Virus record (IMG/VR): IMGVR_UViG_3300042542_000678
Coordinates: 1 to 59,458 of that record
Source: a virus
Taxonomy: Duplodnaviria > Caudoviricetes
Length of the DNA: 59,458 nt
Direction: 5' to 3' (one strand)
Under the pieces are notes generated by a model. That model did no database searches and was not told the DNA's origin. It was given only the letters and a program-made list of their open reading frames with translations. This document shows, in pieces, positions 2,820-40,185 of this stretch. The position numbers and the translations under genes were made by a program. Positions within the stretch are counted from its first letter, which is position 1. Each line of letters starts with the position of its first letter.

Positions 2820-5063
2820 TTATCCTAACGCAATTGCCAAAGCAACAGCGGTTCCAGCGGGGTCCACTTGCAAACTAATCTGAGCATTAGCCACTGTTGA
2901 AGCGTTAGTGCCACCATTAGCAATAGCCACTATACCAGTTACATTAGCAGCCGTCCCTGTAGTGTTCTGATTCCATGTTGGAACAGTTCCAGTTAAACCG
3001 CTATAATCAACATTGGTTGCTGTAGCAGCAGTACCTGTAGTGTTCTGATTAAATGTAGGAAATGTAAAAGTGCCGGTGCTAAAGTTTCCAGATGTTGGAG
3101 TTCCAAGCGCTGGAGTAATTAGCGTAGGGCTAGTAGACATAACCACATCACCAGTACCAGTTATACCATTACTTACAAGGGCTTTTGTACCATCTGTAAA
3201 CACTGCCCTAGATGCAGTTAACGATGATAGCACAGGAGCGCTACTAAGTGTTTTTACACCAGCAACAGTTTGATTATTAACAACGTCTACGAAGTTAGCA
3301 GCTGTTAAAGTTGCCTGTGTCCAAGCACTGCCTGTCCACAAATACAATTCATTGCTTGTGCTATTCCAATATAACGCACCAACCAGCAAAGTGTTGCCAT
3401 CATTATCTACCGATGGAGCAGAAGCTTTTGGTCCAAGATAACGATCATCAAAGCTGTCGTAGCTGGCAGCAGCAGAAGTGGCGCTAGCAGAAGCATTGCT
3501 AGCAGAAGTAGAGGCATTGCTAGCTGAAGTGGCAGCGTTACTGGCAGAGGTGGCAGCGGCAGCGGCAGAAGCAGCAGCAGATGTTGTCGAGCCAAACAAC
3601 ACATCAATGTAGTTCTTTGTAGCAGCATCTTGTGCCAGCGTTGGGTCACCCATTCCAGTGATCTTGCTGGTACCCATTGCAATAGCACCAGACATTGTGC
3701 CGCCAGACAGTGACAACTTCAGCGCATCGGCAGTGTCAACATATACTTTAGTGGCAGCGTCTTGATTTGCTGAAGGATCACCCATACCAGTGATCTTGCT
3801 GGTACCCATAGCAATTGCACCCGACATTGTGCCACCAGCTAAGTTGAGTTTTAACGCATCAGCGGTGTCAACATATGTCTTAGTGGCTGCGTCTTGCGCC
3901 AGCGTTGGATCACCCATACCAGTGATCTTGTTAGTCCCCATAGCAATGGCACCAGACATAGTGCCGCCAGCAAGTGCCAGCTTAGCGGCAATAGAATTGG
4001 TTACAGTAGTGGAAAAGCTAGCGTCATCACCAAGAGCAGCAGCAAGTTCATCTAGTGTGTCTAACGCTCCGGGAGCAGCAGCTACTAAGTTGCTGATAGA
4101 AGTATCTACATATGTTTTAGTCGCAGCGTCTTGTGCAAGTGTCGGATCACCTAGTCCAGTGATCTTGCTTGTACCCATTGCAATGACACCAGACATGGTG
4201 CCACCACTAAGGTTTAGTTTTAATGCGTCAGCAGTGTCAACATATCCCTTGGTAGCAGCATCTCCGGTATTGGTGGGTGATGTAAGATTGGTAATGGTGG
4301 CAGCAGTGCCAGCATCCATATTCAAACCACCGTTGATGGTGACATCGTTAAATGTAGAAGTGCCGCTAGAAGCTGTTACATTACCAGTAAGATTACCAGT
4401 GACATTGCCGACAACAGCACCAGTGTGCGTACCGGCTGTATTACCAGTGACAGCACCAGTAAGACCACCAACAAAACCTGTACTGGCTGTAATAGTTGTA
4501 CCAGTAATTGCTTGAGCAGAAGAGCCACCAATCACTGCACCATCAATCGTACCAGCATTGATATCAGCAGACGCAATAACTGCTGCTGTGTTGACTGTCA
4601 AGTTAGTAACTGTAGCAGCAACAGGTGTTGTAGCTCCGATAACAGTGTTGTCAATAGTACCTGCATTGATGTCAGCAGTGTCAGCAACAAGACTATCAAT
4701 GTTTGCTGTGCCATCAATGTACAGGTCTTTAAACTCAAGAGCAGCAGTGCCAAGATCAATATCGTTATCTGTGACAGGAACAATGGCACCGTCTTGAACG
4801 CGCACTTGCTCAACAGCAGCAGCGGCAACTTCAACAAATACACCAACACGATTGTTGGCAGTGTCTACAGCAACTTTGTTAAGAGCGTCAGAGTCTGCAA
4901 TCAGGGTGACATAGTTACCCTCAGTGGCGCTGCCATCATGGCGGTGACCACTAGCAAGCAGGAAGGCATCACGCAACGCATTGAGTTCGTTATTGATTGG
5001 TGCTGCTCGTACAACGGCTGTTGGCACGATGTCGGCAGCAGATTGTCTTTGATATCCAGCCAA
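2820..5063 (-). CDS. Proximal tail fibre protein with internal repeats
   Basis: Follows tail tubular genes; DAATKxYVD repeats, APGALDTLDELAAALGDD motif, Ala/Ser-rich segment. Confidence 0.8.
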   Translation of the reverse strand: MAGYQRQSAADIVPTAVVRAAPINNELNALRDAFLLASGHRHDGSATEGNYVTLIADSDALNKVAVDTANNRVGVFVEVAAAAVEQVRVQDGAIVPVTDNDIDLGTAALEFKDLYIDGTANIDSLVADTADINAGTIDNTVIGATTPVAATVTNLTVNTAAVIASADINAGTIDGAVIGGSSAQAITGTTITASTGFVGGLTGAVTGNTAGTHTGAVVGNVTGNLTGNVTASSGTSTFNDVTINGGLNMDAGTAATITNLTSPTNTGDAATKGYVDTADALKLNLSGGTMSGVIAMGTSKITGLGDPTLAQDAATKTYVDTSISNLVAAAPGALDTLDELAAALGDDASFSTTVTNSIAAKLALAGGTMSGAIAMGTNKITGMGDPTLAQDAATKTYVDTADALKLNLAGGTMSGAIAMGTSKITGMGDPSANQDAATKVYVDTADALKLSLSGGTMSGAIAMGTSKITGMGDPTLAQDAATKNYIDVLFGSTTSAAASAAAAATSASNAATSASNASTSASNASASATSAAASYDSFDDRYLGPKASAPSVDNDGNTLLVGALYWNSTSNELYLWTGSAWTQATLTAANFVDVVNNQTVAGVKTLSSAPVLSSLTASRAVFTDGTKALVSNGITGTGDVVMSTSPTLITPALGTPTSGNFSTGTFTFPTFNQNTTGTAATATNVDYSGLTGTVPTWNQNTTGTAANVTGIVAIANGGTNASTVANAQISLQVDPAGTAVALAIALG
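3615..4270 (-). repeat. 44-aa (132 nt) tandem repeats inside the tail fibre
   Basis: GATCTTG anchor recurs at 3660, 3792, 3924 and 4161; unit ALKLNLAGGTMSGAIAMGTSKITGMGDPSANQDAATKVYVDTAD. Confidence 0.9.
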
Positions 5064-9288: not shown

Positions 9289-9364
9289 TGGTTGCGGAGG
9301 AGGGATTCGAACCCCCGATTCTTGGCTTATGAGGCCAAGCGGATGACCACTTCCATACTCCGCG
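9289..9364 (-). tRNA. tRNA-Met(CAT), initiator-like
   Basis: 76-nt cloverleaf: CGCGGAG/CTCCGCA acceptor (C1:A72 mismatch), TTGGC-CTCATAA-GCCAA anticodon arm, GGGGG-TTCGAAT-CCCTC T arm, encoded CCA. Confidence 0.92.
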
Positions 9365-19435: not shown

Positions 19436-19608
19436 TTGTATCCACCACCCTTAGCTTTATATTCTTTGGCAACCATCTGCGCCTTACGAGCGCTCCACTC
19501 GCCGGGGTCACCACCCTTGCTACCAGCCTTCACTTTAGCCACCAACGCCTTACGCATTGTTGGTTTGGTGTAATTGCCAGCAGCATTAACAGTAGATTTT
19601 ATTTTCAT
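19432..19608 (-). CDS. Basic protein, DUF5872-like N-terminal half (not in ORF track)
   Basis: NYTKPTMRK...KGGDPGEWSARKAQMVAKEYKAKGGGYK; ATGA overlap with next gene. Confidence 0.75.
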   Translation of the reverse strand: MKIKSTVNAAGNYTKPTMRKALVAKVKAGSKGGDPGEWSARKAQMVAKEYKAKGGGYK

Positions 19609-19621
19609 TATTCACCTTTAT

Positions 19622-19695
19622 TGGCACACCCCCAGAGATTCGAACTCCGACTAACAGTTTTGGAGACTGCTATGCTGCCGTTACATCAGAGGCAT
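19622..19695 (-). tRNA. tRNA-Trp(CCA)
   Basis: 74-nt cloverleaf: ATGCCTC/GGGGTGT acceptor, GCAGT-CTCCAAA-ACTGT anticodon arm, CGGAG-TTCGAAT-CTCTG T arm, G73, encoded CCA. Confidence 0.88.
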
Positions 19696-19709
19696 ATTCT
19701 TAACAAGTA

Positions 19710-19979
19710 TTACCACTTAACCTTATCAGCCCAATAGGCTGCTGACATCTTGCCTTTAGCAATGTTGCTGGCATGCCTAGCCTTGAAGCTCTCTTGCCTG
19801 TTCTTGTCCTTCTCAGTCTTTGGAGAAGCACCAGCACCGCTAACACCCTGCTGTCCAAACCTAATGAGCTTCACGCTGTCACCCTCTTTGGCTAACACAA
19901 CATGACTCTTAGTTGGATGCTTCGGTGTAGCTTTAGGCTTGTTATACCCTGAAAACTCTTCTTTGCCACGTTTAATCAT
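19710..19979 (-). CDS. Small basic conserved phage protein
   Basis: KLIRFGQQG...SFKARH...SAAYWA.KVKW motif. Confidence 0.75.
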   Translation of the reverse strand: MIKRGKEEFSGYNKPKATPKHPTKSHVVLAKEGDSVKLIRFGQQGVSGAGASPKTEKDKNRQESFKARHASNIAKGKMSAAYWADKVKW

Positions 19980-20257
19980 TAGTAACGACCCTTGCCTTTC
20001 CTATCGCGCCAGCCCTCAGCCTTCATAGCCGCTTCAACTCTGTCTAACGGAAAATAGAAACCTGTATGCTTTTCCAGCGCCGCTCTAACAAAGTAAACAT
20101 CAGAATGAGGGATGTGAACAGTTTCAGCTTTGTCTTTATATATAGCTTTATAGACATGAGTCGCCGCGCTATAGGGTAACACATCAAGAAGACCTGCATT
20201 AATCACTTGTTCTTTTGTTGAACAAACATTCAGTTTAATGGCATTAGTGCATTTCAT
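19979..20257 (-). CDS. Hypothetical protein, first gene of the late arm
   Basis: HIPHSDVYFVRAALE motif; stop coupled to next start. Confidence 0.6.
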   Translation of the reverse strand: MKCTNAIKLNVCSTKEQVINAGLLDVLPYSAATHVYKAIYKDKAETVHIPHSDVYFVRAALEKHTGFYFPLDRVEAAMKAEGWRDRKGKGRY

Positions 20258-20749
20258 ATCGTGAATTATTATTGTTATTCTATCTATTGTCTACTATATA
20301 GACTTTAAAGCTCTTTAGCGCTACAGGGATTCATTAATTACTATATTAATTGTTTGTTGTTTGTTACACAGAAGCTACAAGCATCATCAGCGTTGTTGTC
20401 TTCTAAGCCCCCTAATCCCCCAATAGAGGTAGTTTTACCGTTTTGAGAAATCTTGTCAAGTGTTATTTTTACATGGTGTTGCTTTCATGTTGAATTGTAG
20501 CACACTTAGGAAGACAAACAACAATGGCCCTAGTGCAAATAGCATCCGTCTATGTCTGCTACAGCATAGCTTAGCATGGATTAAACGACTGTGGTGGCAT
20601 TTGTTTTAGATGGCTGAGGGGTGGGTAGCTTAACCACTTTAAACGCCTGTGTTATTGCTCTCCACAAATCATAGCGTGTGGGAATGGCTGTAGAAAGCTG
20701 TGTGGTTAACAGACTCATTTTCCTGATTTTTGAGTGTGGCTGTATACAT

Positions 20750-21320
20750 ATAGCGCCGTACCCCCCACTGGCCCACACCCGCCCACGCTTAGCCGCGCAC
20801 TGGCGCACACTCGCGCAGCCCTGCACATCCAGCGGCAGGTGAGCGCTACAGCCCTGCGTAAATTCACCCGTCATTCAAAAGAGTCTTAAGAATCAATGAC
20901 TTATAAGACTCTTGAAACTGATTCAAAATCAGCTGCGACATGATATGTTACTGACTAACCGGTCATTAAATACCATACCCCTACACTGTGAAGGGTCGGT
21001 ATATCTATATCCCTATACATCGTATAGTGACTACTCAGTCTACATTGCAACTAATGAGTCAATGCTGCAATGCAATAAACGATGCAAATAATCAACAGCT
21101 TATATATCCCAATGCTGCAATGCAACAAACGACAATGTTGATGAAAGCCTCGCACAAACCGAAGGCTTGTCTACGCCAAGCTTCAGGCATACATACGCAG
21201 CAGCTTTGCTGCCAACAACAAACAACAAAACAATTAAATGACGAAAAGCCTCGCATGACATAGGCATCACTCGCGCATGTAATGCAAGCGTCATACGCCG
21301 CAGCTTTGCTGCCTGAGAAA
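20750..21320. repeat. Non-coding divergence region with direct/inverted repeats (probable termini/origin region)
   Basis: GC-rich block 20750-20860; IR AGAGTCTTA..TAAGACTCT 20880-20912; CAATGCTGCAATGCAA at 21060 and 21110; CATACGCmGCAGCTTTGCTGCC at 21192 and 21292. Confidence 0.7.
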
Positions 21321-21328
21321 CCCTACAC

Positions 21329-21358
21329 TTGACAGGGCTATTGAAATGTTTGTATAAT
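21329..21358 (+). promoter_or_regulatory. Early sigma70 promoter P1
   Basis: TTGACA-18 nt-TATAAT. Confidence 0.85.
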
Positions 21359-21416
21359 TGAGGCCGAAACAGCGATGTTGCTGCTTCAAAACGCTACACT
21401 ACCGAAGGTAAACACC

Positions 21417-21647
21417 ATGAAAAAATCACTCAAACGCATTTTCTTTATCTATAGCGAAGCTACTCTCGCTGTGTTCTTTGCCGCCATGTCACTGCTTGAA
21501 GTAGCTTGCTACTTTGCTATTCCGTCATCGGTAAGCTTTGCTGGTGAGCTTGCCCTAGGTGCTGCAATAGGCTTTGCCTTGATGACAGTTGTGTTGGTAA
21601 ATGTAATTTACCGGAATGAAAAGCGTAACAGCATTAACATTATCTGA
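21417..21647 (+). CDS. Small membrane protein (two hydrophobic segments)
   Basis: ATG at 21417 after AAGGT; MKKSLKRIFF... Confidence 0.6.
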   Translation: MKKSLKRIFFIYSEATLAVFFAAMSLLEVACYFAIPSSVSFAGELALGAAIGFALMTVVLVNVIYRNEKRNSINII

Positions 21648-21659
21648 AAGATAAACATC

Positions 21660-21857
21660 ATGCAAACCGAACAAATTATCACTGCCTTACACAATGCGAA
21701 GCTGTACGAAGCAGCGAAGCTGCAATGCAATAACTCTAACATTGACAAACTGTCAATGATTATTGCAGTGGCGACAGGGAATGTTGCAACATACAAAGTA
21801 TTGTATGAAATGTTTTGCGAATTGCAAAGCGGCAGCCAAACCTACAACATTATCTGA
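21660..21857 (+). CDS. Hypothetical early protein
   Basis: 65 aa ORF in coupled array. Confidence 0.6.
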   Translation: MQTEQIITALHNAKLYEAAKLQCNNSNIDKLSMIIAVATGNVATYKVLYEMFCELQSGSQTYNII

Positions 21858-21865
21858 AAGATAAC

Positions 21866-21973
21866 ATGAAACATTTGCTCAATTGGCTGACAAACCCTCA
21901 GCCTGTGTCATTAATGACATTCATGTCACCCGTCATAGTGCTTGCTGTGATGTTCGCCATTTTCACTTACTGA
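21866..21973 (+). CDS. 35-aa hydrophobic peptide (not in ORF track)
   Basis: MKHLLNWLTNPQPVSLMTFMSPVIVLAVMFAIFTY; bounded by the same hairpin motif as neighbouring genes. Confidence 0.55.
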   Translation: MKHLLNWLTNPQPVSLMTFMSPVIVLAVMFAIFTY

Positions 21974-21982
21974 AAGTAACTT

Positions 21983-22174
21983 ATGCAAATCGTCACATTG
22001 AAAACCGCCAAAATTGGTGAATACATTAAACGCAAAGCTGACAGCAAAGCTGTATACATCAAGGGTGCATATGACAGAACGACAAAGTCGTTTAGCTGCA
22101 TTGATGTCGAAGACATTTGCCGTGAGATATTTATCAAGGCTGATAAGCCTGTCGTAATCGGCTTCACATATTAA
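21983..22174 (+). CDS. Hypothetical early protein
   Basis: 63 aa ORF ending GFTY. Confidence 0.65.
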   Translation: MQIVTLKTAKIGEYIKRKADSKAVYIKGAYDRTTKSFSCIDVEDICREIFIKADKPVVIGFTY

Positions 22175-22200
22175 ATCGTAGATTTACCTGAAAGTAAACA

Positions 22201-22455
22201 ATGCAAACTATCCGCAACATTCTCGCAAAAGCCGTAGGCTTTACAGTCATTGGTAAGGGCAGCAAGAAACGCCATTACACATTCACATTCAGCGAAGCTG
22301 CTGAGTGGGCAGCATGCTATGGCAGACATGGTGGTGCAAGCATATACAAGGGTGGCATATGGGTAGCATCCAGAGGCAAGCATACGAAACCGCAGGTTTA
22401 TAAAGCTTGGGATGAAAGCCCTAGACTTGACAGGGTTATTGCAAAGTCGTTATAA
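22201..22455 (+). CDS. Hypothetical early protein
   Basis: 84 aa ORF; 3' end runs through promoter P2. Confidence 0.6.
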   Translation: MQTIRNILAKAVGFTVIGKGSKKRHYTFTFSEAAEWAACYGRHGGASIYKGGIWVASRGKHTKPQVYKAWDESPRLDRVIAKSL

Positions 22456-22456
22456 T
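22427..22456 (+). promoter_or_regulatory. Early sigma70 promoter P2
   Basis: TTGACA-18 nt-TATAAT; shares TATAATTGAGGCCGAAACAGC with P1. Confidence 0.85.
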
Positions 22457-22504
22457 TGAGGCCGAAACAGCAATTTCGCTGTGTCACTTACCATAGGTAA
22501 ACAA

Positions 22505-22714
22505 ATGGAAATTATCGTTGAAATTAAAAATGTCTACGGAGTAGAGCAAGTCTACCCTGTATGCAATAAAGCAAAGCTTTTTGCTTCAATTGCAGGGACT
22601 AAAACACTTACTTACAAAGTACTTGCCGATGTTGCGGTACTAGGTTACAAAGTAACCTTGAAAGTGCCAACATTCAATCAATCCCACATTTTGCGTTTGA
22701 AAAATTATTCCTGA
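22505..22714 (+). CDS. Hypothetical early protein
   Basis: ATG 22505; KNVYG...YPVC..AKLFA.IAGTKTLT motif. Confidence 0.7.
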   Translation: MEIIVEIKNVYGVEQVYPVCNKAKLFASIAGTKTLTYKVLADVAVLGYKVTLKVPTFNQSHILRLKNYS

Positions 22715-22727
22715 AAGGAAACACATC

Positions 22728-23483
22728 ATGTTCAAGTCTAAAGCTTTGCTTTCCATCAATGCCGATGCAAAAACTAGCAAGGGTGAAACCTTCGGTTTTC
22801 TGACAGGCATTCTCTATCTAGCACCTTACCTTTCCACAAAGTGGAATACATGCAGCATGGCTAAGATCGCTGAGTGCGGCGAAGCTTGCTTGTACACTGC
22901 TGGCCGTGGTGCGATGTCCACTGTGGCAAATGGCCGTATCAACAAAACCATTTGGTTTTTTACTGAACGAAACAGCTTCATGCAACAGCTTGCTGTAAAC
23001 ATTCGACAGCTAGTGAGCAAAGCTGCTAAGCAAAGCTTAATCCCATTGGTTAGACTCAATGGTACTAGCGACATTCGCTGGGAAAGCGTAGCTTTTACAG
23101 ACACCGATGGTGTGGAATACTCTAGCATCTTCGATGCTTTCCCTACAGTGCAATTCTACGACTACACAAAGGATGTGAATCGTAAGGCTTTGCCTTTAAA
23201 TTACGATCTTACATTCAGCTACAGTGGTGTTGTAGGCTTTCAGCCTTTTGTAAACAAAGCCATTGAAAATGGTATGCGACTCGCTGTTGTTTTCCGTAGT
23301 GTTGCTGCTATACCGAAGGTATTTAAAGGCATGTCGGTCATCGGTGGCGACAACAGTGACATTCGTCACTTAGAGGATAAGGGTGTGGTTGTTGCGCTGT
23401 ATGCCAAGGGCAAAGCGAAGCTTGATATGACAGGCTTTGTCGTTGATGCAGCTAAGCCTGTATTCATGCTGCAAGCCGCCTAA
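22728..23483 (+). CDS. GP88-like protein (Cys cluster, radical-SAM-like)
   Basis: C-x7-C-x3-C cluster followed by AGRG; VRLNGTSDI and QFYDYTK motifs. Confidence 0.65.
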   Translation: MFKSKALLSINADAKTSKGETFGFLTGILYLAPYLSTKWNTCSMAKIAECGEACLYTAGRGAMSTVANGRINKTIWFFTERNSFMQQLAVNIRQLVSKAAKQSLIPLVRLNGTSDIRWESVAFTDTDGVEYSSIFDAFPTVQFYDYTKDVNRKALPLNYDLTFSYSGVVGFQPFVNKAIENGMRLAVVFRSVAAIPKVFKGMSVIGGDNSDIRHLEDKGVVVALYAKGKAKLDMTGFVVDAAKPVFMLQAA

Positions 23484-23659
23484 GCTTAGGCATTCCGTGT
23501 AAGGTTGCGAGTCAGCCTTATGCAGAGTGTCTGTGCCATGATGATGCGAATAGCCATGTGATGATGGGTTGCATTGTGGCACAGGGATCTAGGCCAAGCT
23601 AAGCATATGTTATGCGAGGCAAAAGCCGACTAAGTTGTAGGGTTGTTTTTCTGCAACAG

Positions 23660-23689
23660 TTGACAAGCGAAGCAAGATGTTTGTATAAT
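23660..23689 (+). promoter_or_regulatory. Early sigma70 promoter P3
   Basis: TTGACA-18 nt-TATAAT. Confidence 0.85.
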
Positions 23690-23695
23690 GTAAGG

Positions 23696-23730
23696 GCACT
23701 GATCGTAGTGCAGCAAGTCGCTCTTTAAAA
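23696..23730 (+). promoter_or_regulatory. Hairpin plus boxA-like antitermination site
   Basis: GCACT-GATCGT-AGTGC hairpin, then CGCTCTTTAAAA (cf. boxA consensus YGCTCTTTAACA). Confidence 0.6.
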
Positions 23731-23765
23731 ATCTAATGCTAGTGTCGGTGAGGGTGTGTGTTTCT

Positions 23766-23934
23766 TAGCAGGGCATGCATCACCACTATGGACTAGCCCA
23801 ATCTGTACAGGGTGAATGTACAGGGCATGCTGACATATCATGCTGATAATATGTGAGTGAATCCATTGTGGCTGTTGGGTGATGGCTAGACAATGGGTTT
23901 CAGACAGTGTATTTTGATGCATTGCCTGAAGCTA
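23766..23934 (+). ncRNA. Candidate structured RNA (multibranch)
   Basis: Closing stem CAGG..ATGCATCA / TGATGCAT..CCTG enclosing three hairpins; no credible + strand ORF. Confidence 0.45.
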
Positions 23935-23965
23935 TTTCGCTTCGCTTTCCTATAAGGAAATAAAC

Positions 23966-24394
23966 ATGGCTAAAACAATTATCCCTGTCACTGCTGGTGT
24001 ATCAACATGGGGTGAGAGTGCAGACTGTACAGTCAGGGCACTAGCTAACAGCACTGGTCTACGATATGGCAATGCCCATAACATACTGCGTCAACATGGC
24101 AGGAAAGACAAGCGAGGCTGCACCTGTAATGTGTGGCACGATGCATACATTTCCAATGGCATGTCACTGGTAGGTGTCTACGGCACAACCAAAGGGGCAC
24201 GATACCTAGCGAAGAAGATATCTGTTGTGGCACAGAATGGCACAACCCTTGGCAGCATATTGCCTAAGCTTACAAATGGCAGCTACATAGTCATCATTAC
24301 ACGGCATGCATTGGCTGTGGTCAATGGTGGTGTCGTTGACATGAATTTAAATCGGTCTAACAGCCGTGTCATTGCAGTGTATAAACATTCCTGA
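23966..24394 (+). CDS. Putative papain/C39-like cysteine peptidase-fold protein
   Basis: DCTVRAL (Cys) and RHALAVVNGGVVD (His, Asp) motifs. Confidence 0.45.
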   Translation: MAKTIIPVTAGVSTWGESADCTVRALANSTGLRYGNAHNILRQHGRKDKRGCTCNVWHDAYISNGMSLVGVYGTTKGARYLAKKISVVAQNGTTLGSILPKLTNGSYIVIITRHALAVVNGGVVDMNLNRSNSRVIAVYKHS

Positions 24395-24407
24395 AAGGAA
24401 ACATATT

Positions 24408-24659
24408 ATGACTTATTGCCAAAAACACAATTATACAATTACCCTTTACCCATATGGTGAGGATGTGGGCATGGGTATCGTCAAGATATCACCCTCTACA
24501 CAGTATGGGTATTGGGAACATGGATACGGCAGCGAGGGTGGTGGGCTGTGGTTTGAGGGTAAAGAACTGGCAGATTTTGATGGTGATTATATGCTGCCAA
24601 AGGCAGTGGTTAAAATGCTGCGAGATAATGGTTATGCATTAGATGAATCGTTTGATTAA
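24408..24659 (+). CDS. Hypothetical early protein
   Basis: ATG 24408 after AAGGAA; EGGGLWF...L.DFDG...LPK.V motif. Confidence 0.7.
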   Translation: MTYCQKHNYTITLYPYGEDVGMGIVKISPSTQYGYWEHGYGSEGGGLWFEGKELADFDGDYMLPKAVVKMLRDNGYALDESFD

Positions 24660-24679
24660 CTCCTGAAAGGAAACATATT

Positions 24680-25048
24680 ATGTTAGGCATTAATGTTAGA
24701 AACACAAAGGACAAACCCTTTGCTGATTTAATTGTCGATGGTTTTAAAACTATAGAGACACGGGAAAGCAATAGCTTATATCCCTATGTTGGCAAGCGAA
24801 TAGCAATTGTCAGGACAGGTATGGGTAAGGCATTTGCCATAGGCGAAGTTACTATCACTGGTTTTAGTTGGACAAATAGTAAATCAATTTTCGATACCTA
24901 TCAGCCCCTGCACATGGTGACTGAGGACAATGCCTTTTATTTTAAAGAAGGCACAGGCAAGTTCATGTATTTCTTAGAGAATGCTGTGCGTTATAAAACA
25001 CCTGTTGCTGTTGGCAAGGGTATAGTGGCTAGACAATTAATATCCTGA
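24680..25048 (+). CDS. ASCH/PUA-like domain protein
   Basis: PFADLIVDGFKTIETR matches the ASCH GxKxxExR motif. Confidence 0.75.
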   Translation: MLGINVRNTKDKPFADLIVDGFKTIETRESNSLYPYVGKRIAIVRTGMGKAFAIGEVTITGFSWTNSKSIFDTYQPLHMVTEDNAFYFKEGTGKFMYFLENAVRYKTPVAVGKGIVARQLIS

Positions 25049-25061
25049 AAGGAAACATATT

Positions 25062-25451
25062 ATGAAAGTATTCGTATACTTTAACCTGCACCGCAAGCTG
25101 TTCAGTATCAAGGCACTTGAGGGTGACATGAAGGGGCGTGTCATAGCACATCGTCAACAGGTGCTGCTCAATGATGCGACATTCAAGGTGTCTGAGGCAG
25201 GACGGCAGCGTGTCATCCGTGAGCGGCGTAAGAATGTACATGCTGGTGTCAGTGGCACATGGTTTGGCGATGATGATGTTCAGGGCAGGACTATTGCATT
25301 CACCACCATCAATGGCTCTGCCATTATGTACAACCCTTACAGGTACAGCACATTCGTTCACTTGTATGGTGAGCATCCGATAACATCTGCCCGACTTGTA
25401 GCGCTGAATGTCAGCGACAGCAAGCGTCCATCCATCCACACTTGGGACTAA
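25062..25451 (+). CDS. Conserved hypothetical phage protein
   Basis: VYFNLH...FKVSEAGRQRV.RE.RKNVHA...YNPY motif. Confidence 0.75.
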   Translation: MKVFVYFNLHRKLFSIKALEGDMKGRVIAHRQQVLLNDATFKVSEAGRQRVIRERRKNVHAGVSGTWFGDDDVQGRTIAFTTINGSAIMYNPYRYSTFVHLYGEHPITSARLVALNVSDSKRPSIHTWD

Positions 25452-25456
25452 ATAAT

Positions 25457-25759
25457 ATGTTACTTAAACTAGGCATATGGAATGTTCGCATTGTTAATAT
25501 TGGCGATCAATATGGCGGGTGGCGTCTTCCTAATGACAAAGCACCGATGGTAGAGTTCTACGATAATAGATATCCGCATACTGACTATGGGCAGTTTGTC
25601 TCACGCTATTATATCTCCACTATACTTAGTCAAGACAGCCGTGGAGGTGAGTACTCTAACGGACTGTGCCTAGATGGTGGAGTGCCAGCATGGCAGGTAT
25701 CTGCTGAGGATATGGCACAGGTTATAACCTTTCTGAAAGAACACAATGGAAACACCTAA
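25457..25759 (+). CDS. Hypothetical protein
   Basis: VEFYD...GQFVSRYY...GLCLDGGVPAW; ATG 25457. Confidence 0.65.
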   Translation: MLLKLGIWNVRIVNIGDQYGGWRLPNDKAPMVEFYDNRYPHTDYGQFVSRYYISTILSQDSRGGEYSNGLCLDGGVPAWQVSAEDMAQVITFLKEHNGNT

Positions 25760-25958
25760 ATGTTATTACAGCTTTTCTCAATCAGCCGATGACGATATTA
25801 ATAATTGGAGCGTCATTGTAGATGGGTCACCAATATGCAGCAAGCGTACATTCCCTGAAGCTGTGCGCTGTGCTGAGAGTTTTAAACTAAACCCTTGCCT
25901 ATACTTTTGGAATGGTGTTATAGGACAGTTTGTTCAACTAGGTATATTGAAGAGGTGA
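25746..25958 (+). CDS. Hypothetical protein
   Basis: 70 aa ORF in array. Confidence 0.55.
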   Translation: METPKCYYSFSQSADDDINNWSVIVDGSPICSKRTFPEAVRCAESFKLNPCLYFWNGVIGQFVQLGILKR

Positions 25959-25962
25959 GAGC

Positions 25963-26181
25963 ATGACAACATACATAGACATGTTTAATGTAGACAACTA
26001 CTACACATGGGAGATGGCAGAGTTACAAGGTGCTGTATACACAGTGAAGATATACTCTGTTGATGACCCCAATGAGTTTCCCGGCTCATATATTATATCA
26101 GACATACTTGATGCCATCAATGTAACATGTGAGATGTTAGATGGTAGCCCACATGTTAGAACCCGTATTAGGAGCGAATAA
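25963..26181 (+). CDS. Hypothetical protein
   Basis: 72 aa ORF with GAGG SD. Confidence 0.55.
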   Translation: MTTYIDMFNVDNYYTWEMAELQGAVYTVKIYSVDDPNEFPGSYIISDILDAINVTCEMLDGSPHVRTRIRSE

Positions 26182-26182
26182 A

Positions 26183-26734
26183 ATGGCTAAAGCAGAACAA
26201 TCCCACGAAGACCAATTAAGCAATGTATTTTTTGCGGATGCATTTCCCGATGCTGATAGTCCCGCTGAACTGTATCGCCAAGTGTACAAATACACCGCTT
26301 GTGGTGCATATCTAAGTATGCAAATCGAATACTACAAAACCATAGAACCCGATGGGTTTAATGACTTTCCTTTTGACAAACTTATCAGCGAGTGGGTTCA
26401 TAGTGACGCACTACACCAACTTGGAACTTGGAAAGACTTAGACCAACAGGGAGTGCTGGTCACTGCAATGATGGTTGGCAGCATTGTCGAAGGCATAGAC
26501 CAATGCACAGAAAGTATTGAAGTCGAAGCCAATCAATTGGACGAAGAACCAGAGGAATTTCACAAGCGCTTTTATGCTGCCTTGGGTGAAGTTGAACAGG
26601 AAGCTGAGTCTATTTGGAATGATACTCATGGATGCGAAACATGTGCCGAACATTGGGGCATTAACCTTGACGAAAAACTGTCCCCTGTTTGGACTAAATG
26701 CCCTGATTGTCAAGGGCATGGTACACCAATTTAA
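26183..26734 (+). CDS. Acidic hypothetical protein with C-terminal CxxC...CxxC
   Basis: ATG 26183 after AGGAG; CETC and CPDC. Confidence 0.65.
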   Translation: MAKAEQSHEDQLSNVFFADAFPDADSPAELYRQVYKYTACGAYLSMQIEYYKTIEPDGFNDFPFDKLISEWVHSDALHQLGTWKDLDQQGVLVTAMMVGSIVEGIDQCTESIEVEANQLDEEPEEFHKRFYAALGEVEQEAESIWNDTHGCETCAEHWGINLDEKLSPVWTKCPDCQGHGTPI

Positions 26735-26752
26735 TTATTAGGAGCAAATGAA

Positions 26753-26983
26753 ATGGCTAAAGTAGTATTTGAAAACAATCAATATATTCTCAGGAATGAT
26801 TGGGGTATTGATGATGTTCGTGCTGTTATAGAATCCACTGACAATGCACGAATTAAATCTTTCACAGATGACGATTGTGTCCGTGTGCTTGAGATGGTAG
26901 CGGAGAGTTTCGATGCTAACTATGGCATCACATGGGATAGTTTGGAGCATGCCATCACTACATATATAGAGGATTCAAAATGA
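26753..26983 (+). CDS. Hypothetical protein
   Basis: AGGAG SD; FDANYGITW motif. Confidence 0.65.
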   Translation: MAKVVFENNQYILRNDWGIDDVRAVIESTDNARIKSFTDDDCVRVLEMVAESFDANYGITWDSLEHAITTYIEDSK

Positions 26984-27058
26984 GTGACGCAGTTATATAC
27001 TTGCTGCACATGATTGAGATCGTTATACTTTTTATTATCCATTGATGGAGCATTGCAA

Positions 27059-29113: not shown

Positions 29114-29158
29114 CTAACCCCTAGCAGCAATGTCGCTGTGTCTTTTAAGGAAACTTCA

Positions 29159-30001
29159 ATGTCTAAACATGTCATCTTCTCCCGCAATGCAAACAACACG
29201 GCCCTGACAACAGAGCGCATCCAACAGCTATCCCCTGCTGTGTTTGCCACTACCAAGCATGACCGCTTGACTGATCGTTATGTTGCGCTGCACACTAGCG
29301 ACCTCATCCCTGTGATGCAGGACTATGGATATGCTCCAGTGCAAGCAGCACAGAAGCGTAGCCGTAAGGTAGCTGCTGAGCATTCGGCCCACATGATTGC
29401 CTTTGCTCGTACTATCGACACTGACTTTGCTCAGGGTGATGTGCGTCCTGAAATCATCTTGTACAACAGCCATGATGGCAGCAGCAGCGTCAAGTTGTTT
29501 GCTGGTGCATTCCGTTTCATCTGCTCTAACGGCATCGTTGCTGGTGACGGCTTCCAGAATCGTATGTATCACAACACCTCTGCATTGTCAGGCTTTGAAG
29601 ACATGCTGCGTAACACAGTGGCTAACCTGCCAGCTATGATGGAGCGTATCAACCTGCTCAAGAGTGTGCAACTGTCCAGTGCATCAGCGTATGAGATGGC
29701 TAAGCGTAGCGTTGCTACTCGTTGGGACATGTACGATACACAGGAGAAGGGTGTCTATGCCATCGAGAAAACCATCACCGATGTGCTTGCCATCAACCGC
29801 AATGAGGATGACCACATGGATGCATTCACTGTGTTCAACCGCATTCAAGAGAGCGTCATCCGTGGCAAGGCATTCGTCAAGAGCCTGACTGAGGCAACAC
29901 CATACGGCTCTATCCGTAAGGCTCGACCCATCAACAGCGTGAAAGAAAACATCCGCATCAATGGCGAGTTGTGGGACATTGCTGAAGAGATGGCTGCGTA
30001 A
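29159..30001 (+). CDS. DUF932-family protein
   Basis: NSHDGSSS...AG.FRFICSNG and FNRIQE motifs. Confidence 0.85.
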   Translation: MSKHVIFSRNANNTALTTERIQQLSPAVFATTKHDRLTDRYVALHTSDLIPVMQDYGYAPVQAAQKRSRKVAAEHSAHMIAFARTIDTDFAQGDVRPEIILYNSHDGSSSVKLFAGAFRFICSNGIVAGDGFQNRMYHNTSALSGFEDMLRNTVANLPAMMERINLLKSVQLSSASAYEMAKRSVATRWDMYDTQEKGVYAIEKTITDVLAINRNEDDHMDAFTVFNRIQESVIRGKAFVKSLTEATPYGSIRKARPINSVKENIRINGELWDIAEEMAA

Positions 30002-30069
30002 CTAGTGTAGTACTTGATGCACATCATTTAAGTATGGTGTGCATTGACAACAACACAAGGGGTATATGT

Positions 30070-30900
30070 ATGGATAAAGACTATGCAATTGGCATGTTCA
30101 TTGGCACAGCTATCGGTGATGCGCTTGGCGCACCGCTAGAATTTACACAGCCAAACACAGGGCATCCGCTCACTGAGATGGTGGGTGGTGGCGCTCACGA
30201 TACTGCTGTTGGTGAGTGGACAGATGACACAGCCATGATGGTATGCATTGCCGATGCGTACATCAACTTCAAAACCTTTTCACCGAAGGTGATTGCTAAT
30301 AATTTCGTTGATTGGAAACGCTACGGCACACATGGTACTCGTGACTATTGCTTTGACATTGGCCGTACAACATCTGATGCACTGTCGAGCATTGAGAAGT
30401 CCCGCATCTATGGTGGCAGCACAGACTACAAGACCAGCGGCAATGGTTCTATCATGCGAATGGCAGCTAATGTTATGGTCAATCATCGATGCATGGCACT
30501 GGCTATTGGTGAGTCTGTTGCGACAGCACTGATTACACACGGCACAAAAGACACTGTGCAATATGTATCGGCACTGGCTGAAGAGCTTCATCGTGGCAGC
30601 AGACTGTCTTGCTATGATGGTCTGCGTGTCAAAGGTGCAGCAAAGCCTGATGGTTCTGTGATGGGCTGCTATGCTTCAGCATGGGATAGCATTGCTCGTA
30701 CAACAAGCTTTAAAGACGCTGTTGTACATGCCATCAACAAGGGTGGTGACGCTGACACAGTGGGTGCTGTCACTGGTATGATTGCTGGCCGTATCTATGG
30801 CTACTCTGCCATCCCTCAGCGCTGGCTCGACAAGCTGGTCAAGCATGATGAGTTGCTTGTCATGGCAAACGATTTGTACTATCTGTACGAAGGAGAATGA
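30070..30900 (+). CDS. ADP-ribosylglycohydrolase (DraG/ARH family)
   Basis: GDALG.P.EF, WTDDT, DIG.T, GNGS.MR and GGDADT motifs. Confidence 0.92.
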   Translation: MDKDYAIGMFIGTAIGDALGAPLEFTQPNTGHPLTEMVGGGAHDTAVGEWTDDTAMMVCIADAYINFKTFSPKVIANNFVDWKRYGTHGTRDYCFDIGRTTSDALSSIEKSRIYGGSTDYKTSGNGSIMRMAANVMVNHRCMALAIGESVATALITHGTKDTVQYVSALAEELHRGSRLSCYDGLRVKGAAKPDGSVMGCYASAWDSIARTTSFKDAVVHAINKGGDADTVGAVTGMIAGRIYGYSAIPQRWLDKLVKHDELLVMANDLYYLYEGE

Positions 30901-31175
30901 CAATGAAAAGAATGTGTGACGGGATGGGCGGGAATACCCCTTGCCCACACCCACAGGATTGCACAGTGAGTTGCGGGTTTAACAATGCAGGACTTGATCC
31001 TGTGGAGACTCGTAAGATCAAACCATATCCGTCCGTTCCAGATGATATTGAAGAGCTTAGCATAGAGTGGTACAGCATTGGACAGATGCTTATCGGTGCA
31101 ATATTTGCAGCACTTATAGTGGCGGCTGCGCTTTTAATATTCACTGGTATGTACATAGGCAGGATGCTCATATGA
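30897..31175 (+). CDS. Small membrane-anchored protein
   Basis: AAGGAG SD; C-terminal transmembrane segment. Confidence 0.6.
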   Translation: MTMKRMCDGMGGNTPCPHPQDCTVSCGFNNAGLDPVETRKIKPYPSVPDDIEELSIEWYSIGQMLIGAIFAALIVAAALLIFTGMYIGRMLI

Positions 31176-32269
31176 AACTACCACGCTACCTATTATCCTT
31201 CATCCGCTATGACACTACACACTACCGCTACAACCCTCCAGTAGATGCGATTGATGCTGGTATAGTTGAGCGTAAGGCGTGTGGCACAGACTACGAAGCT
31301 GCTGTCGAGTATGCTGAGAAGCATAATGCAATCATGGACTCGTGGCGTAAGGAACACCGCTACTTAAAAGACTTGTCTGAGAAGTCAAGGGTTGAAGACC
31401 TGTTCAAGTCTTACATCAACAGCATAGGCTACAAAGCCCTGTCTCCAAAGAGCAAGACTGATTATGTCTACTACCTGAAGCAATGGTTTCATGATGCTAC
31501 AGTGTCACAGGAGCTACTCAACACAAGGCTGTGTGACATTGCCACACCAATGTGCCAGCGTATCTACGACAAGCATGCAGAGAACAGTGTTAGCCTTGCC
31601 AATCACACACTGGCAGTCTATCGTTTGTTGTTTAGCTTTGCTATCCGCAATGGCTTTACAAAGCACAACCCCTTCACTGAGGTGAGCAGACGGCAAGACA
31701 AGCCGCGCCGTGTGGTGTGGGAAAAGAAACACATCAAGCAATTCATGGACAAGGCATTCACCAAGTATGAGTGGCGTAACATTGGGTTGCTGGTGTACAT
31801 GGCCTACTCATGGGGTCAGAGGCTAGGCGACATGCGACTGCTCACATGGGACAACTACGATGCTGACACAGGGGTGATGAAGCTGGAGCAGAGCAAGCGT
31901 AGGGCAAGGGTGGAGATACCAACCAGTGCTGCCTTGCGTGAGATGCTGGCACAGCAGAAGGCTGACATTGGCTGGCAGAAGTACATTGTTCCGTCCCCTA
32001 TTGGCGATGGTAGTGGTGGATTTAAACCTTACACCCTATTGCAATTGGCTAAGGTTGGTGGCACAATCATGCGAGAGTCTGGCATACCAGATCACCTTAA
32101 GATGATGGACATGAGGCGAACAGCAGTGACTGAAATGATTGAAGCTGGTGTACCGCTGACCAATGTCATGTCTGTCACAGGACATGCAACAACACACAGC
32201 CTTACACCCTACATTAAGAACACATTAAAGAGTGCATCTGTTGCACAAGATATGAGGGACATGATATGA
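31172..32269 (+). CDS. int: Tyrosine recombinase / integrase
   Basis: GQRLGD (catalytic R), QSK, MDMRRT, GH, PY; probable start MKLPRY at 31172. Confidence 0.88.
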   Translation: MKLPRYLLSFIRYDTTHYRYNPPVDAIDAGIVERKACGTDYEAAVEYAEKHNAIMDSWRKEHRYLKDLSEKSRVEDLFKSYINSIGYKALSPKSKTDYVYYLKQWFHDATVSQELLNTRLCDIATPMCQRIYDKHAENSVSLANHTLAVYRLLFSFAIRNGFTKHNPFTEVSRRQDKPRRVVWEKKHIKQFMDKAFTKYEWRNIGLLVYMAYSWGQRLGDMRLLTWDNYDADTGVMKLEQSKRRARVEIPTSAALREMLAQQKADIGWQKYIVPSPIGDGSGGFKPYTLLQLAKVGGTIMRESGIPDHLKMMDMRRTAVTEMIEAGVPLTNVMSVTGHATTHSLTPYIKNTLKSASVAQDMRDMI

Positions 32270-39428: not shown

Positions 39429-39751
39429 AACCAAATGATGTGGCGATGATACTGCGTCCAATTATTGTAGAAGGCGAAGAATGGGATGGAGGTTTTGAAG
39501 TATTAATTGCTGGTATTGGACCTATAACAATGCCAGAAGACAGCATCCGTGAGTTGATCAGCATGGCAATGTTGGTAGCTACTACTATTCCTATGATGGA
39601 GAGTGATTCAGAGCTTACAGAAAAGATCATGATTGAGTGCGCTAAGGTGTACGGCGATGCTGATGATGTTGATATTCAAACCATGATAGACAGCACAGAG
39701 GGAGGCTCATCTTTTACAATTAATAGTAAGACTGTTGGGGGTATGCAATGA
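39425..39751 (+). CDS. Hypothetical protein
   Basis: ATG 39425 coupled to exonuclease stop. Confidence 0.6.
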   Translation: MKPNDVAMILRPIIVEGEEWDGGFEVLIAGIGPITMPEDSIRELISMAMLVATTIPMMESDSELTEKIMIECAKVYGDADDVDIQTMIDSTEGGSSFTINSKTVGGMQ

Positions 39752-40185
39752 GGAGCAATTGCAATGGTTGTTTTTATCTAGACCAAGAGAGAGAACAGGA
39801 GCCTTGCTACACCTGTCATAGCTATTGCAACTGGGTTGCCAAAGACTTTTTAGCTAGCGTTCCTGATACACCTGTTACACTGAAGTCGGGCGTTAAATTT
39901 GATCAGGACAAGCCTCAGTGGACACTAGTACCCTTCAAAGCATTGGACGAAGTGGTGGAGGTGCTAACCATTGGTGCAAGGAAGTATGCTCCTGACAACT
40001 GGAAGAAAGTTCCTAACGCACGGCAGCGCTACATTGATGCAGCGTTCCGTCACATGTCAGCCTACGCTGCTGGTGAAAAGCTTGATGTTGAGACAGGTAA
40101 GAATCATTTGGCACATGCTATGTGCTGCTTGTTGTTCTTGCTAGCGTTTGATCTTGATAAAACTTTGGAGAAAACTAATGGCTAA
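39748..40185 (+). CDS. DUF5664-like dATP/dGTP diphosphohydrolase domain protein
   Basis: GVKFDQDK, GARKYAPDNW, A.RH, D.ETG..HLAHA motifs. Confidence 0.75.
   Translation: MRSNCNGCFYLDQEREQEPCYTCHSYCNWVAKDFLASVPDTPVTLKSGVKFDQDKPQWTLVPFKALDEVVEVLTIGARKYAPDNWKKVPNARQRYIDAAFRHMSAYAAGEKLDVETGKNHLAHAMCCLLFLLAFDLDKTLEKTNG

Follow-up and report, generated by a model that had tools for sequence, protein, structure and literature searches.

We report a dense field of short palindromes in the early region of a tailed-phage genome (Duplodnaviria; Caudoviricetes; IMG/VR record IMGVR_UViG_3300042542_000678); "the window" below is the whole record, a single contig of 59,458 bases. Positions 21200-23322 contain 32 perfect hairpins in which a 5-8-bp stem closes a loop of exactly 3 nt, far more than shuffled versions of the same DNA. 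The reading we favour, with a probability of roughly 0.42, is that the field is an array of mini-hairpins selected for their structure and acting at the DNA level, on the sense strand of heavily transcribed early DNA; the use that we infer for it is discussed separately. A wider claim seems to us somewhat unlikely when taken with all its parts: the field would be an undescribed cis-acting structural layer of DNA, in which dozens of extrudable triloop mini-hairpins within immediate-early coding DNA are read as structure during host transcription, form a distributed zone of replication start or of shielding of single-stranded DNA (ssDNA), and through selection dictate amino acids of a conserved enzyme.

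Hairpin excess and the loop rule

The field was noticed in the first-pass annotation as a cluster of AGCRAAGCT sites (R, purine; Y, pyrimidine; N, any base). All 12 sites that it listed in 21200-23483 are found at the positions given; complementary flanks extend the stem to at least 4 bp in 10 of them, as claimed, the sites at 21534 and 23016 ending at 3 bp, and the variants named at 23083, 23184 and 23310 are all present. Its estimate of under 0.1 expected sites holds approximately for dinucleotide shuffles (0.12) and fails for synonymous-codon shuffles (3.15 +/- 0.96); the observed 12 are reached in 0/1000 shuffles of either kind. The whole window contains 19 such sites, against a mean of 2.06 and a maximum of 7 in 100 dinucleotide shuffles.

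These sites are a subset of the 32 perfect hairpins. If stems of at least 4 bp are admitted at the same loop length, the field contains 43 hairpins with widely varying stems, and AGC-N3-GCT cores make up 12 of the 43. The density is one hairpin per ~66 bp, with a weaker tail to ~26-27 kb. The count of 32 compares with 9.21 +/- 2.15 (maximum 17) when synonymous codons are shuffled within genes, with 7.84 when codons are pooled and with 3.03 (maximum 10) in dinucleotide shuffles, and is reached in 0/1000 cases under each of the three; the codon shuffles cover seven open reading frames (ORFs), and the eight hairpins touching non-coding DNA stay fixed in them. Other 2284-bp windows outside 20.5-26.5 kb have at most 9 hairpins (stem of at least 5 bp, loop 3), with a median of 3. 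Shuffles preserving codons or dinucleotides were the check proposed in the annotation: the excess survives both and is regional, not genome-wide.

The excess is specific to the loop length. The density of hairpins with 3-nt loops is 8.6 per kb between 21 and 26 kb and 1.47 per kb outside this interval, and loops of 0, 1, 2, 4, 6 and 7 nt are near background in the field (for 4 nt, 2.4 per kb against 1.74). Loops of 5 nt reach 3.6 per kb against 1.71 at stems of at least 5 bp; their excess at stems of at least 4 bp was discarded as a separate signal, since it consists of triloop hairpins with stems of at least 5 bp read one pair shorter. The triloops are spread over all three codon phases (11, 4 and 9), so that the field is no codon artefact.

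In 29 of the 32 hairpins the loop and its closing pair read Y-[R-N-A]-R on one strand, 22 times on the plus strand and 7 times on the minus strand. The same rule emerges from 1133 unique field hairpins of related loci (described below): the 5' closing base is C (0.42) or T (0.37) and seldom G (0.06), the loop has R (0.86), then A (0.58) or T (0.20), then A (0.73), and the logo is flat beyond the closing pair and the loop. Stems are longer than chance would give, with extension ratios of 0.47 and 0.38 in the field against 0.26 outside. In the late genes (35 kb) the Y-[R-N-A]-R form is found in 0/45 hairpins at stems of at least 5 bp; an avoidance of canonical hairpins there was considered and dropped, because at stems of at least 4 bp the form occurs in 19/157 (12%), approximately as by chance, and we claim only the enrichment in the field.

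Of the exact heptamer GCGAAGC the window has 6 copies inside the field and 5 outside. The hexamer AAGCTT occurs 8 times in the 2.3-kb field (21178-23482) and 36 times in the other 57 kb; it is a by-product of AAGC/GCTT stems and carries no separate signal.

Relatives and probable selection for structure

The 3' part of the field lies in a gene of the GP88 family (PF17338; 22728-23483, plus strand; 251 amino acids), with 12 hairpins inside. The GP88 protein served to find 80 related loci in viral metagenome contigs (53-96% identity). Loci L027, L037 and L076, where a contig end cuts the gene, are omitted from the profile of density by distance; the later analyses omit also L049, L070 and L078 for the same reason, and the phylogeny, a quick maximum-likelihood tree, omits in addition L042 and L054.

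Among the relatives, the mean density is 0.8-1.9 hairpins per kb at more than 1 kb 5' of GP88, rises to 3.9 and then 6.2 per kb within the kilobase before the gene, peaks at 9.6 per kb in its first 500 bases and is back to about 1.5-2 per kb by +4 kb. Counted from the start of the first late gene, the field sets in at ~+0.5-1 kb, has a plateau of 7-8 per kb as far as +4 kb and is down to the baseline at ~+6.5-7 kb. At least 5 hairpins per kb within GP88 are found in 54 of 74 relatives and in the window. L025 and L026 have 1.3 and 2.6 per kb, and the outer clade (L056-L079) has mostly 0-2.8, with L064 borderline at 5.6. The pattern on the tree requires one gain and two losses. The GP88 branches of the two losses are long, 0.31 and 0.25 against 0.004 for a sister, which suggests that a constraint was released. 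Two cultured phages, Limnohabitans phage DC31 (GP88 identity 65%) and Pelagibacter phage HTVC023P (40%), have GP88 and lack the field. Considering these phages together with the outer clade, the protein itself does not need the palindromes.

The array sets in shortly 5' of the first consensus sigma-70 early promoter and, among the relatives, fades out within about 3-6 kb. A promoter-leader module stands ahead of GP88 in every positive locus examined, and in the outer clade GP88 lies in the middle of an operon; in 19 positive loci near-consensus promoters (at most 1 mismatch) are missing, and weaker versions of the module are seen there by eye. The hairpins fill whichever small accessory ORFs occupy the region.

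Covariation was assessed in a DNA alignment of 75 sequences for 14 helices. Paired cells make up 65.3% of these helices, against 31.6-43.7% when the partner is slid; cells altered on both sides number 323 against 171.5 +/- 11.2 in shuffles (0/500), and the covariation score is 0.160 against 0.107 (0/500). The share of Watson-Crick pairs in the helix columns is 66% for the positive clade and 37% for the negative loci. Individual sites illustrate the effect. At 23083-23095 the window has AAAGC-GTA-GCTTT, 28 sequences have AAACC-GTA-GGTTT and 6 have AAGCT-GTA-AGCTT, the encoded residues being S-V-A, T-V-G and A-V-S, respectively; at 23234 there are six stem variants in 47 sequences. Loops, too, flip between relatives, GAA to TTC and back at 23310, TTT to AAA and back at 23184. 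Many hairpins are present in only a part of the clade: the density is conserved, and individual sites turn over.

An 18-nt in-frame insertion near the 3' end of GP88 in L016, L024 and L035 (columns ~817-834 of alignment A2) carries a complete TTCCT-GAA-AGGAA hairpin, identical to the junction hairpin 5' of GP88; such sequence identity suggests that hairpin units can be copied into coding sequence.

The annotation spoke of a "DNA-level code". The part that stands is a structural signal at the level of nucleic acid and not of protein, considering the use of all codon phases, the varying stems, the compensatory amino-acid changes and the loop rule of the GNA type known for DNA. A code in the sense of a sequence does not stand, AGC-RAA-GCT being one of many stems.

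DNA-level reading and its rivals

On balance, the evidence favours DNA over RNA. Across the 14 conserved helices in the positive clade there are 2340 Watson-Crick, 217 G·T, 281 A·C and 685 other pairs; among hairpins with one mismatch, G·T and A·C number 45 and 70 for R-N-A loops, 34 and 28 for T-N-Y loops. Thus G·T is not favoured over A·C, and the alignments give no sign of the wobble that would be expected from RNA, which we count for DNA. The rule for the loop and closing pair matches DNA mini-hairpins, promoters of phage N4 and palindromes of Streptomyces telomeres, and is counted likewise; so are the conservation of both hairpin orientations within GP88 and the presence of two canonical hairpins 5' of P1, the first early promoter. 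The strand is informative as well. Among unique hairpins, R-N-A and T-N-Y loops stand at 123:38 5' of GP88 and 243:61 3' of it; in the part transcribed leftward the proportion is turned round, at 3:28, and far away it is ~1:1. The stable loop is therefore on the sense strand on both sides of the divergent point, which a link to transcription fits better than a link to a DNA end, and the bias would point to the non-template strand of transcribed DNA.

We suggest the following course of events. Host RNA polymerase, firing heavily from the early promoters, would leave underwound DNA, or a hybrid of RNA and DNA, in its wake. Hairpins would then form in the sense strand or, as small cruciforms, in both strands, and the array would keep the immediate-early DNA open and resistant to nucleases and to single-stranded DNA-binding protein (SSB). 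The likeliest use would be a transcription-dependent start of replication for the T7-like primase-helicase and the DNA polymerase of a phage without its own RNA polymerase; shielding of the exposed strand would be an alternative use. The proposed role in replication start follows by analogy the origins of T4, T7 and ColE1. In T4 oriF/oriG, ColE1 and the T7 primary origin a promoter is followed by unwound DNA, and the transcript primes DNA synthesis, which is the likeness to the role suggested for the field; these origins rely on an AT-rich element for unwinding, or on a G-rich hybrid that is tens to hundreds of bases long, rather than on hairpin arrays.

The physical premises have precedents in the literature. 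The promoter hairpins of N4, with 5-7-bp stems and 3-nt loops, are extruded when supercoiling is at its physiological level, and SSB does not melt the template hairpin; mini-hairpins bind SSB poorly and are recognised by primases; in the overhangs of Streptomyces telomeres, palindromes with GNA loops withstand single-strand nucleases. Priming sites of the d(GCGAAGC)/GNA kind (G4-type complementary-strand origins, RSF1010 ssiA) share with the field the compact motif that SSB binds poorly and primases recognise, and the form of the GNA mini-hairpin (pyrimidine-purine closing pair, G/A-N-A loop) is found in 29/32 field hairpins. They differ in being single sites in ssDNA replicons or plasmid origins, while the field is a kilobase-scale array in a double-stranded DNA (dsDNA) phage, with AAA and ATA loops common.

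Several observations weigh against the DNA-level reading. L025 keeps the promoter module and has lost the hairpins of GP88, and when 34 window ORFs were compared between the 60 positive and the 20 negative loci, none told the two sets apart; no gene in the flanks tracks the field. The choice of strand is not strict: the two orientations stand at 85:96 (unique hairpins) inside GP88, where those of the T-N-Y kind are conserved. The junction hairpins described below, with TGA in the loop and a Shine-Dalgarno-like 3' arm, resemble an RNA-level device. GC skew is close to zero across the field, so that its sense strand lacks the richness in G that marks classical R-loop zones, and the field is one-sided, which a bidirectional origin would not predict. 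In the covariation analysis the helices were derived from the very sequences tested, which favours them, and two of five measures are not above shuffles (double-change pairs 32 against 33.4, pair types 92 against 97.9). The hairpins are predicted from sequence, and their nearest-neighbour energies at 37 C are weak, averaging -2.6 kcal/mol as DNA and -3.05 as RNA (range -0.9 to -5.7); they separate neither DNA from RNA nor strand from strand. The equality of the strands indicates that the parameter sets do not include the special stability of GNA loops.

It is unlikely, in our estimate, that the hairpins act in the immediate-early mRNA, against RNase E scanning, Rho loading or RNA-guided defence, or in tuning translation, with the junction hairpins coupling neighbouring ORFs. 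The bias of R-N-A loops to the sense strand does change with the direction in which genes are transcribed on either side, strong promoters stand where the field starts, each transcript opens with a leader hairpin and a hairpin at the ribosome-binding site, and the junctions place stop codons in loops and a Shine-Dalgarno-like sequence in the 3' arm; the mean spacing of ~66 nt is close to the unstructured length that Rho needs. Yet G·U has no advantage over A·C, 3-nt loops alone are enriched, and their rule is that of sheared pairs in DNA. Within GP88 the hairpins with T-N-Y loops are conserved, the loop of one relative may be the complement of that of another (GAA to TTC, TTT to AAA), and two canonical hairpins lie 5' of the P1 -35 hexamer. 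The predicted stability as RNA is marginal and no Rfam family matches the field: covariance models run over 19500-27000 at E <= 1 matched tRNA-Trp alone. Nor do the hairpins have the form of lambda-type nut boxB (5-bp stem, GNRNA pentaloop). The RNA parallel is the pattern named peHaPi in capsidless RNA viruses, where the published description has dense, uniform short hairpins through coding sequence and altered codon pairing; these are genome-wide structures of RNA, with stems of 7-14 nt and without a loop motif, and belong to RNA viruses and pararetroviruses, and the field is regional, made of triloops only and free of wobble pairing, in a dsDNA phage. A mutational by-product appears distinctly unlikely: in DNA that is often exposed as a single strand, imperfect palindromes nucleated by stable triloops would be "corrected" again and again by template switching within the strand, a mechanism from the work on quasi-palindrome mutation in E. 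coli, and the covariation would be free of function. This accords with strict Watson-Crick pairing without wobble, with both arms changing together, amino acids included, with stems longer than chance (0.47, 0.38 against 0.26), and with hairpins in whatever accessory ORF occupies the region. It does not account for a field that is regional and not genome-wide, nor for the long GP88 branches after the two losses (0.25 and 0.31 against 0.004), which suggest a released constraint; the known quasi-palindrome hotspots involve longer stems. It is weakened also by the independence of the field from the polymerase family, as positive genomes carry either a family A or a phrog_1252-type DNA polymerase.

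The idea of the annotation, a signal at the end of the genome that enters first (a block to exonuclease, protein loading, control of entry or, as we add, spoiling of the ssDNA fragments taken by host systems), we consider quite improbable. The density does decay over ~6 kb from the start of the early region, which opens with three consensus host promoters, as the left end of T7 likewise opens with host promoters. Contigs of several relatives end within a few hundred bases of a conserved non-coding element at 20.7-20.9 kb, and many others run straight through the region. A model based on an end does not predict that the loop orientation reverses on the left side, and a 3' overhang or 5' resection at a left end would presumably expose the minus strand with its T-N-Y loops. 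The reported resistance of GNA hairpins to single-strand nucleases speaks for it, and Streptomyces telomeres are described as close-packed GNA-loop palindromes that fold in ssDNA and resist nucleases; there, seven palindromes occupy the last 180 nt of a protein-capped linear replicon and are bound by Tap and Tpg, while the field spans 2-6 kb inside genes, and no Tap, Tpg or other terminal-protein homologue was noted among the ORFs scanned in the window. That the palindromes are sites of a sequence-specific dimeric regulator, such as the repressor operators or "stoperators" in early operons of temperate phages, is highly improbable. The phage has an integrase, two identical GCAGC-TTT-GCTGC palindromes stand in a repeated 22-nt unit 5' of P1, and 12 of the 43 hairpins share the AGC-N3-GCT core; all the same, no sequence is shared by the stems, nothing but the closing pair and the loop stands out in the logo, a given site changes its stem between relatives, and no repressor was identified. 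Mycobacteriophage L5, a temperate phage with GP88- and gp82-family genes and many short stoperators across its early operons, is the natural comparison. Its stoperators share one 13-bp asymmetric sequence in one orientation, and the field, which conserves structure and not sequence, has no such single recognition sequence. We give the least credence to N4-type promoters for a virion-carried RNA polymerase. The early promoters of N4 lie in the earliest-expressed DNA, have 5-7-bp stems (5-8 bp here) and 3-nt loops with a sheared G:A pair (Y-[R-N-A]-R in 29/32 here), extrude, and resist SSB; the genome layout is N4-like, early genes rightward and late genes leftward, with a small N4 gp49-family gene beside the largest virion gene. 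N4 has three promoters on the template strand, with conserved bases from -17 to +1, for a 3500-residue polymerase. In the field there are at least 32 hairpins with free stems, within coding sequence and without conserved flanks; the pattern of -11 purine, -10 G, -8 G and +1 C is not seen in the 1133-hairpin logo, and the stable loop is mostly on the sense and not the template strand (123:38, 243:61). No such polymerase was found among the ORFs scanned: searches of Pfam, PHROGs and PDB sequences linked a 1744-amino-acid ORF to no RNA polymerase. The phage has, besides, host promoters of consensus form.

We found no description of such a field by full-text search of the literature, as far as main articles are concerned, and the main text of the paper on HMO-2011-type phages does not contain the word "hairpin". 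The nearest printed parallels are the three N4 promoters, the single priming-site mini-hairpins, the palindromes of telomeres and the hairpin RNA of capsidless RNA viruses. Where a phage gene carries an overlapping code, this is usually an RNA structure or a site bound by protein, and here a signature of DNA mini-hairpins extends over kilobases of coding DNA. It belongs to a widespread group of freshwater phages, in which it was gained once and lost at least twice, and the clade with and without the field is a ready comparison for asking what reads the hairpins. If they form in vivo, they would be natural small cruciforms or non-template hairpins acting at physiological supercoiling, well beyond the three N4 promoters; if the DNA-level reading is true, it bears on replication start of T7-like replisomes in phages without their own RNA polymerase. 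Hairpin fields will also distort estimates of dN/dS and other codon-based measures in early genes. It may be asked, too, how phages with such a field tolerate host systems that are reported to be triggered by palindromic DNA (DdmABC).

Early region, GP88 and genome layout

The early region has three promoters resembling the sigma-70 consensus, all of them copies of one promoter-leader module on the plus strand and each matching at 12/12 positions: P1 (21329-21358; TTGACA, an 18-nt spacer, TATAAT), P2 (22427-22456) and P3 (23660-23689), 5' of which the dense field stops. The two identical GCAGC-TTT-GCTGC hairpins (21200-21212 and 21300-21312) each close one copy of the repeated 22-nt unit, at 21192-21213 and 21292-21313 on the minus strand, ~117 and 17 nt 5' of the P1 -35 hexamer.

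Small plus-strand ORFs follow P1, and the hairpins at their junctions are built as stem-CT-GAA-AG-stem: the TGA stop of the upstream ORF overlaps the loop, and the 3' arm carries a Shine-Dalgarno-like AGGA or AAGG 7-10 nt ahead of the next ATG. The ORF at 21417-21647 (76 amino acids, no convincing family) contains a hairpin at 21596-21612 (loop GTA) and ends in the junction hairpin TTATCT-GAA-AGATAA (21640-21654, plus strand), its TGA overlapping the loop. The next ORF, at 21660-21857 (65 amino acids), has hairpins at 21711-21723 (GAA) and 21740-21758 (8-bp stem, AAC) and overlaps a second copy of that junction hairpin (21850-21864, plus strand). An ORF of 35 amino acids (21866-21973) ends at the junction hairpin TTACT-GAA-AGTAA (21967-21979, plus strand). 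The ORF at 21983-22174 (63 amino acids) has hairpins at 22041-22053 (AAA), 22078-22092 (AAA) and 22104-22116 (GAA), and TAAATC-GTA-GATTTA (22172-22186, plus strand) stands at the junction to the ORF at 22201-22455 (84 amino acids), which contains 22228-22242 (GTA), 22387-22399 (GCA) and a 4-bp hairpin at 22290. Downstream of P2 a leader hairpin TTACC-ATA-GGTAA (22488-22500, plus strand) lies 4 nt 5' of the ATG at 22505, the start of an ORF of 69 amino acids (22505-22714) with hairpins at 22533-22545 (GGA), 22568-22580 (AAA), 22609-22621 (ACA) and 22642-22658 (AAA). The junction hairpin TTCCT-GAA-AGGAA (22708-22720, plus strand), kept in many relatives, precedes GP88. The 12 hairpins of GP88 start, with their plus-strand loops, at 22740 (TTT), 22786 (TTC), 22832 (AAA), 23027 (AAA), 23067 (CAT), 23083 (GTA), 23101 (GAT), 23124 (TTC), 23184 (TTT), 23234 (TTC), 23260 (GAA) and 23310 (GAA).

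The GP88 product matches PF17338 at 125 bits (gathering cut-off 24.4; E 5.4e-36) and phrog_1617 at E 4e-59. No PDB sequence matches it, and Foldseek gave no match at E <= 0.001. For its predicted model (pLDDT, the predicted local distance difference test score, 81.6), 18 of the 20 best VIA-align rows are radical S-adenosylmethionine (SAM) enzymes, but at Z values of only 4.9-6.9, and the structural neighbours include PFL-activating enzyme, NifB, QueE and viperin. The invariant cysteines C42, C50 and C54 form CX7CX3C, the canonical radical SAM spacing being CX3CX2C. GP88 may be an iron-sulfur enzyme made immediately on infection.

Plus-strand genes span 21.4 to 44.9 kb, among them those for an integrase, a T7-like primase-helicase, a family A DNA polymerase, an exonuclease and a ribonucleotide reductase. 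The structural genes are on the minus strand, from 20,257 down to 107 and, at the far end, down to 45,124; these late genes include terminase, portal, major head protein and tail fibres. The integrase gene suggests that the phage is probably temperate. No phage RNA polymerase turned up among the ORFs scanned in the window. The record was cut arbitrarily, as an ORF is broken off at its end and no terminal repeat is found in the window. Among the relatives, L039 is labelled "linear" and L051 "direct terminal repeats"; the repeat of the latter is 127 nt long and resembles, we presume, an assembler overlap.

The loss of the field in L026 was pursued as a lead. There, a tandem run of ACAGCAACACAGC-like repeats (4730-4850 of L026) replaces the promoter-leader module 5' of GP88, and an extra ORF (3833-4342) has paired CxxC motifs. 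This hairpin-free genome lacks the family A polymerase, gp82-like and ADP-ribosylglycohydrolase genes and has a phrog_1252-type polymerase. Members of this phage family have, at one and the same position, either a family A DNA polymerase gene or an unrelated one of the phrog_1252 type, which is 90-92% identical across genomes (L086 2147-4216, which is the L026 genome; L006; L051). The polymerase type was rejected as a correlate of field loss, both types being found on both sides: family A in the hairpin-positive window, L013, L016, L023, L044, L046 and L066 and in the hairpin-free outer clade, the phrog_1252 type in hairpin-positive L006 and L051 and in hairpin-free L026.

The early-middle region carries the integrase (31067-32269), an ADP-ribosylglycohydrolase-like gene (30034-30900) and a DUF932 gene (29138-30001). 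Virion ORFs of 1744, 667 and 467 amino acids have no Pfam, PHROG or PDB-sequence match in sequence searches; language-model features place the 1744-amino-acid ORF (45124-50361, minus strand) near polyvalent virion proteins, and its nearest named clusters carry LPD or MuF-C domains of such proteins. The small N4 gp49-family gene (PF13876; 44610-44903) adjoins it. The ORF at 39748-40185 has a domain known from the N-terminus of dATP/dGTP diphosphohydrolase (PF18909), of the MazZ type that is associated with 2-aminoadenine genomes, and no PurZ-sized gene is evident among the listed ORFs of the window. Genes of tRNA-Met (9289-9364) and tRNA-Trp (19622-19695) lie on the minus strand amid the late genes. 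A DNA-level search of the phage collection gave a single weak match of 93 nt.

The 1-kb gap between the divergent operons holds a GC-rich non-coding element (20680-20935), whose DNA is kept in many relatives, including hairpin-free L026, and several relatives have contigs that begin no more than a few hundred bases away. Candidates for its nature are a terminus, an attachment site and a small RNA. When the public RNA-labelled library X22 was compared with the window, coding and non-coding parts were covered alike, the uncovered parts being uninformative; with such even coverage neither transcription nor ends can be read from X22. One X22 contig joins window position 21365 to 22707, that is, the P1 leader straight to the GP88 junction, skipping six small ORFs, and a similar shorter layout is partly seen in relatives L001 and L003.

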